This document shows positions 19,506 through 20,701 of a stretch of DNA of 59,622 bases, piece after piece (the first letter of the stretch is position 1; each line of letters starts with the position of its first letter). Position numbers and translations under genes: made by a program. Under the pieces are notes generated by a model, which saw only the letters and a program-made list of their open reading frames with translations, did no database searches and was not told the origin of the DNA. Origin of the DNA: Fimbriimonadaceae bacterium (GTDB lineage Bacteria > Armatimonadota > Fimbriimonadia > Fimbriimonadales > Fimbriimonadaceae); the NCBI GenBank assembly GCA_040081075.1, contig JBEBHJ010000014.1, positions 1 to 59,622 on the forward strand, in the 5' to 3' direction.

Positions 19506-19517
19506 TTTTTGCAAAAA
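19506..19517. promoter_or_regulatory. palindrome TTTTTGCAAAAA (contains a TTGCAA -35-like hexamer) followed by GTCT; conserved at 39354-39367 upstream of the paralogous cassette
   Basis: Seen in both paralogous upstream regions, immediately 5' of the CTTT tract. Confidence 0.3.
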
Positions 19518-19525
19518 AGTCTTGT

Positions 19526-19557
19526 TTTCTTTCTTTCTTTCTTTCTTTCTTTCTTTC
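19526..19557. repeat. tetranucleotide microsatellite (TTTC)8 / (CTTT)7 in a promoter spacer
   Basis: A perfect tandem tetranucleotide tract lies between the TTGCAA palindrome and the TATAAT box. Confidence 0.9.
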
Positions 19558-19558
19558 T

Positions 19559-19564
19559 TATAAT
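19559..19564 (+). promoter_or_regulatory. TATAAT -10-like box 6 nt upstream of the ATG at 19571 (leaderless-type arrangement)
   Basis: Consensus hexamer. The 44-bp spacer to the TTGCAA is filled by the CTTT tract. Confidence 0.35.
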
Positions 19565-19570
19565 GTGAGC

Positions 19571-20701
19571 ATGGGAAAAAGGCTTTCAATCGCTGTGGCG
19601 TTTCTCTTAGCGATTCTCGGATTCGCACATCCAAAACAAGTCAGTGGACCCACTATCCAAATTCCGGCCGGAGGTGGGCCAATGCCGAATTACTTTAGCG
19701 GCACAAACTGTCGAGCGAGTGGAAGTGCTCAACTGGGTAGCGGTGTCGAGCACGCGGAGCTTTATTTAATTGGCAATGGTGTAGCGACACTTGTCGCTTC
19801 CTTTGTCAGTGATGACGAGCAGTTGCCTATGTCCATTAGCCTGGCCGCGATGTTTGATTCAAGTCACTACTCGCCGGGAACGACACTCTCGGTGAAGTTG
19901 TCCGTAAAGTGTGCGAATATTGCCCAGCCGTACGTATTGACCGCCGGGTCAGTGCCAGTTAAGAATAGGCTTATTGTTTATGAATATCCCGATCCCAATA
20001 TAGCTCCCGTTGGAACCATTATCGCTGGTCATATGGCCAACAAAAATTACACGGTGTATGGCACCGGGAATTCTCTGTTTTGGTCTGCCCAGACCTATCT
20101 CGGTGACTTAAGCGGTGCGACCGCAAGTGTCTGTAGCACGCACGGCAACGTGCCGTTTCATTGGAGTGGAACAAATGACAATATTTACCCCACGTCAAAT
20201 CCCTATAACTACTTAGCCTATAGAACATCACAGATAGGCTCAACCTCCGCCCCAAATGGGTTGCCGCCATTTAACTCGGGCCAGCCGCCACTCAACTTTC
20301 TGCACCTGCTAGGATGCTTATGCGGTCAAAATCCAATCTTTTTGCTTGGGGCAACGTATCCTGGGGACTGGGCCTATCCTAACTCAGTTATTCAAGACCA
20401 ATGCTACTTGGGGTATCGGCCCCTCATCAGCACTGAGCAGGCAGATGAACACGCAGAGTTCATCTGGTCAAGGTTAGCGGCAGGTAAGAACATGAGTCAA
20501 ATCGTGGTCGATATTGATGACGCTATAGACAACTATCCCTACCTCTTTTTATGTTGGGAAACGTATCAAGACTATGAGAACCACAATGAGCAATACATGG
20601 TTGCCGACGACTGGAAAGTTTATGGTGATCCTTGCATGAGAATGAAAGGGGTGTGGTGTCCATGGAGTCCCCCCATCAATGATTGGAAGCGGCAAATCTA
20701 A
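19571..20701 (+). CDS. secreted Cys-containing protein of unknown function, paralog A1 (signal peptide MGKRLSIAVAFLLAILGFAHP); possible caspase-fold-like His/Cys dyad
   Basis: ORF 19484..20701 with a probable start at 19571 just after the TATAAT. It is homologous to ORF 39494..40522 in blocks ('GTNCR.SG', 'AMFDSSH', 'THG', 'NP.NYL..RT.Q.GS', 'PPLNF.HLL.C.CG'). Confidence 0.65.
   Translation: MGKRLSIAVAFLLAILGFAHPKQVSGPTIQIPAGGGPMPNYFSGTNCRASGSAQLGSGVEHAELYLIGNGVATLVASFVSDDEQLPMSISLAAMFDSSHYSPGTTLSVKLSVKCANIAQPYVLTAGSVPVKNRLIVYEYPDPNIAPVGTIIAGHMANKNYTVYGTGNSLFWSAQTYLGDLSGATASVCSTHGNVPFHWSGTNDNIYPTSNPYNYLAYRTSQIGSTSAPNGLPPFNSGQPPLNFLHLLGCLCGQNPIFLLGATYPGDWAYPNSVIQDQCYLGYRPLISTEQADEHAEFIWSRLAAGKNMSQIVVDIDDAIDNYPYLFLCWETYQDYENHNEQYMVADDWKVYGDPCMRMKGVWCPWSPPINDWKRQI

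Follow-up and report, generated by a model that had tools for sequence, protein, structure and literature searches.

Does a tetranucleotide microsatellite that runs directly into the −10 box of a bacterial promoter set the output of the genes behind it, or is it a neutral product of replication slippage? The question is raised by a stretch of 59,622 nt (the window) that is the whole contig JBEBHJ010000014.1 of a metagenome-assembled genome (MAG) of a Fimbriimonadaceae bacterium (Armatimonadota). Read directly, the plus-strand sequence from position 19506 onward consists of TTTTTGCAAAAAAGTCTTGT, (TTTC)8, TT running into ATAAT, GTGAGC, and the ATG at 19571-19573 that opens gene ABL949_05240, here called P1 and followed by a second gene, P2; we refer to this site as locus A. 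Tandem Repeats Finder (TRF) reported a tract of period 4 with 8.5 copies and 100% matches over 34 bp at 19526-19559, and an exact scan placed (TTTC)8 at 19526-19557 and (CTTT)7 at 19529-19556. These readings agree with one another and with the arrangement that the first-pass annotation had described for 19506-19571. Its transcription of the site had the right total length but the wrong segmentation, the A-run being A6 rather than A5 and the linker GTCT-TGT rather than GTCT-TGTT. The (TTTC)8.5 tract is the sole microsatellite of its kind within 59.6 kb: the runner-up tetranucleotide tract in the window has 3 units, the exact scan found no homopolymer of at least 8 nt in the 59,622 bases, and the chance expectation for a perfect period-4 34-mer in 2 × 59.6 kb is about 1e-13. 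We propose that the tract is hypermutable and modulates transcription of the P1-P2 operon, making locus A a contingency locus of the phase- or level-variable kind, and we regard this as moderately probable. Hypermutability would have its prerequisites here, in that the tract is perfect, appears long enough, and is sited where its length can affect expression.

An independent assembly also contains the repeat. Contig L002 of the Logan assembly of run SRR29156679 contains 25 nt or more of the tract leading into TATAAT-GTGAGC-ATG (TATAATGTGAGCATG after the tract), and the tract is therefore not an artifact of a single assembly. Exact-protein look-ups aimed at further contigs across the tract yielded only k=31 Logan contigs, all of a single run: L001 extends to 19505 and L002 begins within the tract, and copy number is not obtainable from them. 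L001 stops 20 nt short of the tract, at the edge of an A/T palindrome, where a k=31 graph should reach about 50 nt further; this early stop could reflect polymorphism or low coverage at the palindrome.

How is the promoter built around the repeat? The −10 hexamer TATAAT is perfect (19559-19564, plus strand), shares its first T with the end of the tract, and is followed by the 6-nt GTGAGC and the ATG at 19571, with a transcription start predicted at or next to A19571, that is, for a leaderless transcript. The layout of locus A is thus TTTTTGCAAAAAA-GTCT-tgt-(TTTC)8.5-TATAAT-gtgagc-ATG. The homopyrimidine/homopurine tract (plus strand) takes up spacer and −35 position alike: the sequence 16-18 bp 5′ of TATAAT is the periodic TCTTTC/TTCTTT, and a generic sigma-70 scan found no −35/−10 pair at the tract. 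On the far side of the repeat stands the palindrome T5-GC-A6 followed by GTCT (19506-19518, about −65 to −53 from the ATG at 19571), whose core TTTTGCAAAA at 19507-19516 includes TTGCAA (19509-19514).

The first-pass annotation took this TTGCAA for a −35 element and the tract for its spacer, with the present 44-bp allele OFF or low and 4-bp steps switching the operon ON near 17 bp. The distance from TTGCAA to TATAAT is indeed 44 nt; the accompanying statement that removing the tract gives about 16 bp holds for the loss of exactly 7 units (44 − 28 = 16), whereas removal of the whole tract gives 10. TTGCAA matches TTGACA at 4/6 positions, the 16-bp product lies in the functional range, and three homologues considered below have SSRs (simple sequence repeats) inside true TTGACA/−10 spacers. 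Functional spacing at locus A, however, needs the loss of exactly 7 of 8.5 units; at a paralogous promoter in the window the palindrome lies at 27 bp, from which 4-bp steps cannot reach 16-18 bp; family promoters that have a −35 have a perfect TTGACA; and the other leaderless promoters of the window have no recognizable −35 at all. Because the −35 position lies within the periodic tract, the gain or loss of one unit alters neither the sequence nor the spacing of the core promoter, and with TTGCAA unsupported as a −35 the conclusion that the present copy is OFF loses its basis. A spacer switch at this site is, in our judgment, quite improbable. TTGTTT (19522-19527) was considered as an alternative −35 and rejected, as 4-bp steps would give spacers of 31, 27, 23, 19, and 15 bp, never 16-18, and Rfam gave no match to a known riboswitch or small RNA in 19000-20000.

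We propose a different route from tract length to expression. Slipped-strand mispairing during replication would add or remove 4-bp units; since the tract fills both the spacer and the −35 position, a change in unit number would leave −35/−10 spacing unaltered, and each unit would instead shift and rotate (by ~137 degrees) the T5GCA6-GTCT palindrome relative to the −10 box. The palindrome is a candidate UP-like element or operator, a role that is conjectural; were it to act as either, its distance and helical phase to the −10 box of the leaderless promoter would set the output, and multi-level or graded, or else ON/low, transcription would be expected, in the manner of a rheostat. We infer that tract length varies in the population, that length alters transcription, and that the palindrome mediates the effect.

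Is the palindrome more than a local accident of sequence? A second, paralogous operon, B, spans 39340-41403 of the same window and has the layout of locus A with about 3 repeat units, and the palindrome stands upstream of the tract in both promoters. Promoter B (39354-39394, plus strand) reads TTTTGCAAAA-GTCT-attcg-(TCTT)3-TGCT-TATAAT, with TATAAT at 39389-39394, and continues through agagctt to a GTG at 39402, 7 nt after TATAAT, that opens the signal peptide MLRARLSIFTFLLVLAC. The genes that follow on the plus strand are P1b (39402-40522), a P1 paralogue with 37% identity, and P2b (40504-41403), a P2 paralogue with 27% identity. The layout common to A and B can be written TTTTGCAAAA-GTCT-(TCTT)n-CTTATAAT-nGAGC-start, with n about 3 in B. 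TTGCAA lies 27 nt from TATAAT in B versus 44 nt in A, and the 17-bp gap comes mostly from the number of tetranucleotide units; measured from the start codon, the palindrome occupies about −48 to −39 in B, the usual place of an UP element, compared with −65 to −53 in A. Against an expectation of 0.26, the window contains three copies of the core 10-mer TTTTGCAAAA, two of them upstream of the paralogous P1 genes. The third, at 57051-57060, is inside the gene at 56477-57526 with no repeat tract or −10 box near and is probably due to chance. The palindrome falls in one reading frame in A and in another in B, and no canonical in-frame start precedes the tract of B; conservation is therefore at the level of DNA rather than peptide.

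Are repeats found at the 5′ ends of more distant relatives? Loci of the P1 family, referred to by L numbers, were fetched from species-representative genomes (14), from metagenomes (17), and by exact look-ups (5). For an enrichment count, ±60 nt around the start was taken from 16 nonredundant family loci, or 1,936 bp. This sample contains 10 SSRs (in 10 of the 16 members), whereas another 10 are spread over 113,620 bp of remaining sequence (Poisson P = 5e-15); several of these background tracts themselves lie at the 5′ ends of paralogues. SSR unit lengths are 1, 2, 4, 5, 7, and 8, none a multiple of 3. The tracts are of two types. In the promoter type, a homopolymer lies between a perfect TTGACA and the −10 box: G10 in L025 (TTGACA-19-TATAGT-6-ATG), C8 in L018/19 (TTGACA-18-TAGGGT-6-ATG), and C8 in L035/36 (TTGACA-20-TAGCGT-6-ATG); the promoter remnant of a deleted paralogue in L018/19 has C9 or C10 and a spacer of 21. 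In the intragenic type, the tract lies between the ATG and the core or cleavage region of the signal peptide, as poly-C of 16 to ~22 in L004/17, (TC)15 in L006, (TCGGT)6 in L011, (CTCTCGG)6 in L023 with (TCTCGGC)4 in a second paralogue there, (CTCGGCT)4 in L024, (CGGCTCT)2 in L007, G8 in L037/38, and (GGCGCATC)4 in L010. L012, L009, and L008 have one or two degenerate heptamer copies, which, judged from sequence, appear to show tract growth from a proto-repeat. The first-pass annotation had proposed a slipped-strand substrate at the promoter of a secreted-protein operon, along with a comparison of the locus in relatives. That comparison yields SSRs of other sequence at the 5′ ends of the family, and the proposal is plausible in that the family is SSR-prone at its 5′ ends and three homologues have a homopolymer inside the TTGACA/−10 spacer.

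Two repeat-bearing relatives have peculiarities of their own. L006, from a soil Armatimonadota MAG, contains at 7665-7692 an apparently noncoding (AAACCCT)4, the plant-type telomere unit, 3.6 kb downstream of the family gene; a further SSR locus and a chimeric contig are both conceivable readings. At 1280-1560 of L022 (Ga0209415_10009555), C8 lies ~50 nt upstream of a GTG start and two frame changes separate the signal peptide from the mature domain; this member looks degraded or poorly sequenced.

Do the repeats of relatives behave as switches would? Each intragenic locus was rebuilt in silico with varied unit number. As assembled, the consensus sequences of L017, L006, L011, L037, L007, and L023b, the second L023 paralogue, are out of frame. 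A one-unit change produces an intact open reading frame (ORF) of 360-404 aa in L017, L006, L011, L037, and L007 and, in L023b, an ORF of 192-199 aa that reaches the end of the contig. L023a, which shares this contig with the out-of-frame L023b, is itself in frame, and L010 and L024 have further lesions. The downstream ORFs of the intragenic relatives are intact, and these sequences therefore argue for reversible switches rather than dead genes or decayed pseudogenes. Two pairs of independent assemblies allow near-identical copies to be compared. Over 6,960 nt, L004 matches L017 with 0 mismatches apart from the poly-C, C15NNC5 versus C16; over 5,926 nt, L018 matches L019 with 0 mismatches apart from C9/C10 and GG/G in the paralogue promoter remnant. 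Differences confined to SSRs between near-identical assemblies are suggestive, being the signature expected of hypermutable tracts. L018 (FWPU01000175.1), at 1600-6100, and L019 also contain a tandem array in the order C9/C10 promoter copy plus P1-like 3′ end (the deletion remnant), P2-like, intact P1-like, and two further P2-like genes with 73-82% identity. This locus appears prone to recombination, a typical trait of contingency gene families.

A second part of the proposal is that the P1 transcript is leaderless, as the first-pass annotation had suggested from the near-absent 5′ untranslated region. The arrangement of a −10 box, 6 nt, and ATG recurs in five other family members: L034 (TATAAT-AGGCTC-ATG), L037/38 (TATAAT-TAAGGT-ATG), L025 (TATAGT-AACTAT-ATG), L018/19 (TAGGGT-TGTGTC-ATG), and L035/36 (TAGCGT-ACTTGC-ATG). 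The paralogous promoter B has a spacing of 7 nt (TATAAT-AGAGCTT-GTG). Across the window, TAnnnT lies 5-8 nt before 15 candidate starts against 3.2 expected, a 4-5 fold excess, and other offsets average ~1.2; the TAnnnT-proximal genes without an obvious Shine-Dalgarno sequence include those starting at 9897, 19111 (tfoX-like), 38003, 43506, 48686, 53526, 54404, and 58965. Internal operon genes do have a Shine-Dalgarno sequence, e.g., AGGAGG before the P2-like gene of L018. This pattern suggests that leaderless mRNAs may be common in this Fimbriimonadaceae genome, and the prediction that the P1 mRNA is leaderless is well supported by comparison. Leaderless genes of Deinococcus-Thermus, another phylum than the Armatimonadota of P1, likewise have TAnnnT a few nucleotides before the start and no Shine-Dalgarno sequence (PMC4007540, PMC12340547). 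Our literature search found no paper combining Fimbriimonas with leaderless.

Starts of this kind bear on annotation. The public gene calls P0002 (L034), P0006 (L035), P0012 (L037), and P0015 (L011) begin at an internal ATG or in the wrong frame and lose the signal peptide. These miscalls are a systematic annotation error: the real starts are leaderless, split from the ORF by an out-of-frame SSR, or both.

The abundance of intragenic switches among relatives gives reason to ask whether locus A could also switch at the level of translation. Translation would then begin at TTG 19484, preceded at 7 nt by its own TACAAT, and pass through the tract as ...SFFLSFFLS... in the P1 frame, so that 4-bp changes cause frameshifts. 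From TTG 19484 through the tract the P1 frame is free of stops, the 4-nt unit is not a multiple of 3, and most homologues have such a switch. Against this, the tract is stop-free in every frame, which makes its openness uninformative; the signal peptide that starts with the ATG at 19571 is complete and can be aligned to the N-termini of homologues, and this ATG has the family geometry of −10, 6 nt, ATG; and an upstream ORF put out of frame would meet a TAA or TGA immediately ahead of ATG 19571, leaving initiation there unblocked. The lack of a canonical in-frame start upstream of the tract in paralogue B and the different palindrome frames of A and B also count against it. UUG is, moreover, generally regarded as a poor leaderless start codon. 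We consider translational switching at locus A extremely unlikely.

Two explanations remain to be weighed in which copy number would not be what matters. The tract may be functionally neutral, a pyrimidine-rich proto-repeat upstream of a −10-only promoter that was expanded by slippage; its length may vary, with expression independent of it. A TAnnnT near the start seems to suffice for promoters of this genome, TATAAT-6-ATG stands with neither an SSR nor a −35 in the closest homologue, L034, and paralogue B shows a short proto-repeat, all of which fit neutrality. It is harder to reconcile with the extreme SSR enrichment at this position across the family, with the presence in the family of setups that are not neutral (frame-shifting tracts after the ATG and homopolymers in −35/−10 spacers), or with the lack of any other comparable microsatellite in 59.6 kb or in ~114 kb of flanks, and we rate it unlikely. 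The other possibility is structural: as a homopurine/homopyrimidine mirror repeat, the tract could form H-DNA (triplex) under supercoiling and, at any copy number, act as a modulator that responds to supercoiling or block read-through from the tfoX-like gene. The 34-bp polypyrimidine run is perfect and lies 85 nt after this same-strand gene, with only a weak hairpin between. Triplex formation, however, leaves unexplained the unrelated SSRs of relatives (poly-C, poly-G, TC, TCGGT, and heptamers) at the same place; as an explanation in its own right it is very improbable, although it is compatible with rheostat behavior and does not exclude it.

Several observations weigh against our proposal of a length-dependent, palindrome-mediated promoter. 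A second strain did not emerge from the homology searches with P1 and P2, in which P1 had its next relative at 37% identity and P2 matched only itself, and the Logan k=31 contigs break at the tract. The other leaderless promoters of the window appear to need only a −10 box, and the operon might be expressed regardless of tract length. The TTTTGCAAAA palindrome is absent from the 38 fetched loci, among which only a loosely similar T6-C-A7 was seen, in L006. Homopolymer differences between assemblies, such as those of the L004/L017 and L018/L019 pairs, could be sequencing or assembly errors. Finally, the signal peptide of P1b (frame 2) and its mature domain (ORF 39494-40522) are in different frames, with a stop, TAG, at 39485. 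The frameshift lies near 39483-39490, outside any SSR; P1b is either a pseudogene or affected by an assembly error, and the conservation of promoter B is accordingly no proof of current function.

What would be regulated? P1 (19571-20701, plus strand) encodes 376 aa with a signal peptide, an Ig-like β-sandwich, and a clan-CD cysteine-peptidase-like domain (His191-Gly192, Cys249), and P2 (ABL949_05245; 20701-21660, plus strand) encodes 319 aa with a signal peptide, one or more domains with a weak PepSY-like hint, a Pro/Thr-rich linker, and a C-terminal transmembrane helix. The P2 start overlaps the P1 stop (TAATG), and a P2-like gene follows a P1-like gene in eight other distinct loci (L003, L004/17, L005, L006, L018, L034, L035, and L037); the tract therefore precedes a conserved two-gene operon. 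With signal-peptide-like N-termini in both P1 and P2, the overlap and the conserved pairing bear out the earlier designation of the downstream genes as a secreted-protein operon. The P1 fold is of the caspase/gingipain α/β type (gingipain/CHAT-like), and H191, G192, and C249 are invariant across 14 aligned sequences. We infer that P1 is a secreted clan-CD cysteine-peptidase homologue, with peptidase activity assigned solely from its fold and conserved residues. With the threshold relaxed to E ≤ 5, Pfam still had no match for any of P1, P1b, P2, and P2b, the P1 family profile had no sequence match in the PDB, and searches of these two databases did not place P1 by sequence in the curated C11, C13, C14, C25, or CHAT families. 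In comparison with the known clan CD peptidases (gingipains RgpB/Kgp, CHAT, metacaspases, and legumain), P1 has no sequence-level match to any Pfam family or PDB chain and is paired with a membrane-anchored partner, P2. The PepSY link of P2 is a single weak match in an L018 homologue (E = 0.077), and the predicted structure of P2 is poor, with a predicted local distance difference test (pLDDT) score of 45.

Upstream of the tract on the same strand is the small tfoX-like gene (19111-19440), which encodes a TfoX_N domain; accD and accA lie further upstream on the opposite strand. Directly 3′ of the P1-P2 operon, and ahead of cytochrome-c-type genes, a single 650-aa ORF (21738-23690) joins COX15/CtaA (heme A synthase) to UbiA/CtaB (protoheme farnesyltransferase) as a ctaA-ctaB fusion. 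The extreme end of the contig (59463-59573) contains an imperfect tandem repeat of period 21/42 with 2.3-4 copies and 65-80% matches.

How does locus A relate to known repeat-based switches? SSRs in promoter spacers act as switches in Haemophilus influenzae hifA/B, with (TA)n, in Neisseria meningitidis porA (poly-G) and opc (poly-C), and in Bordetella fim (poly-C). Homologues L018/19, L025, and L035/36 share this design, with a homopolymer between TTGACA and the −10 box and spacers of 18-20 bp. Locus A does not, since its 34-bp tract cannot fit a 17-bp spacer and changes in unit number leave the core spacing as it is. Intragenic 5′ SSR switches in signal-peptide coding regions are known from Neisseria pilC (poly-G) and opa (CTCTT) and from H. 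influenzae tetranucleotide loci. They resemble L004/17, L006, L007, L011, L023, L024, and L037, where the SSR lies between the ATG and the signal-peptide core or cleavage region, and differ from locus A, whose tract is upstream of the start codon and outside the ORF. The nearest parallels are of another kind. In the Helicobacter pylori sabA rheostat (Aberg et al. 2014, PMC4081817), a T-tract adjoins the core promoter, as the SSR does at locus A, where the tract likewise parts a conserved A/T palindrome from the −10 box. Locus A has a tetranucleotide repeat where sabA has a mononucleotide one, the tract takes up the −35 position itself and adjoins the −10 box of a predicted leaderless promoter, and the bearer is an environmental member of the Armatimonadota rather than a host-adapted pathogen; locus A is, moreover, known from sequence alone. 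N. meningitidis nadA also has a tetranucleotide SSR, (TAAA)n, in its promoter region, whose copy number alters the spacing of distal promoter elements or operators and, through it, how strongly the gene is expressed (Metruccio et al. 2009, PMC2791445). In nadA a recognizable −35 lies downstream of the tract, which acts via NadR and IHF, whereas the tract of locus A replaces the −35 region. A tetranucleotide tract that adjoins the −10 box and occupies the −35 position of a leaderless promoter is not a textbook arrangement.

SSR contingency loci as such are well known, and what appears to be new is their setting and breadth: an environmental phylum, with a secreted clan-CD peptidase operon as the cargo. 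Work on SSR phase variation has dealt almost exclusively with host-adapted pathogens. Soil and ocean bacteria are named as a knowledge gap in this field by a 2025 review (PMC11868660), and our literature search found no paper combining Armatimonadetes with phase variation. A single gene family appears to show at least eight independently derived tracts of both transcriptional and translational design. As a broader proposal, possible but tentative, free-living Armatimonadota (Fimbriimonadaceae, Chthonomonadaceae, and relatives) may keep a multi-locus phasome on operons of secreted gingipain-fold peptidases and their membrane partners, with at least eight independently invented SSRs, transcriptional as well as translational. 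The allele of the window would then represent an undescribed design, in which a tetranucleotide tract stands in for the −35 and the spacer of a leaderless promoter with only a −10 box, whose output it tunes through the position of the palindrome. One lesson for annotation is that gene callers mis-start or truncate leaderless SSR-bearing genes, as in P0002, P0006, P0012, and P0015. If the proposal is true, an environmental phylum would have classical contingency loci whose cargo is a secreted protease module rather than an adhesin, lipooligosaccharide, or restriction-modification gene. One family would have sampled nearly every known SSR design, from the spacer homopolymer and the post-ATG frameshifter to the promoter-proximal tract, and would offer a natural comparative series for the origin of switches from proto-repeats.

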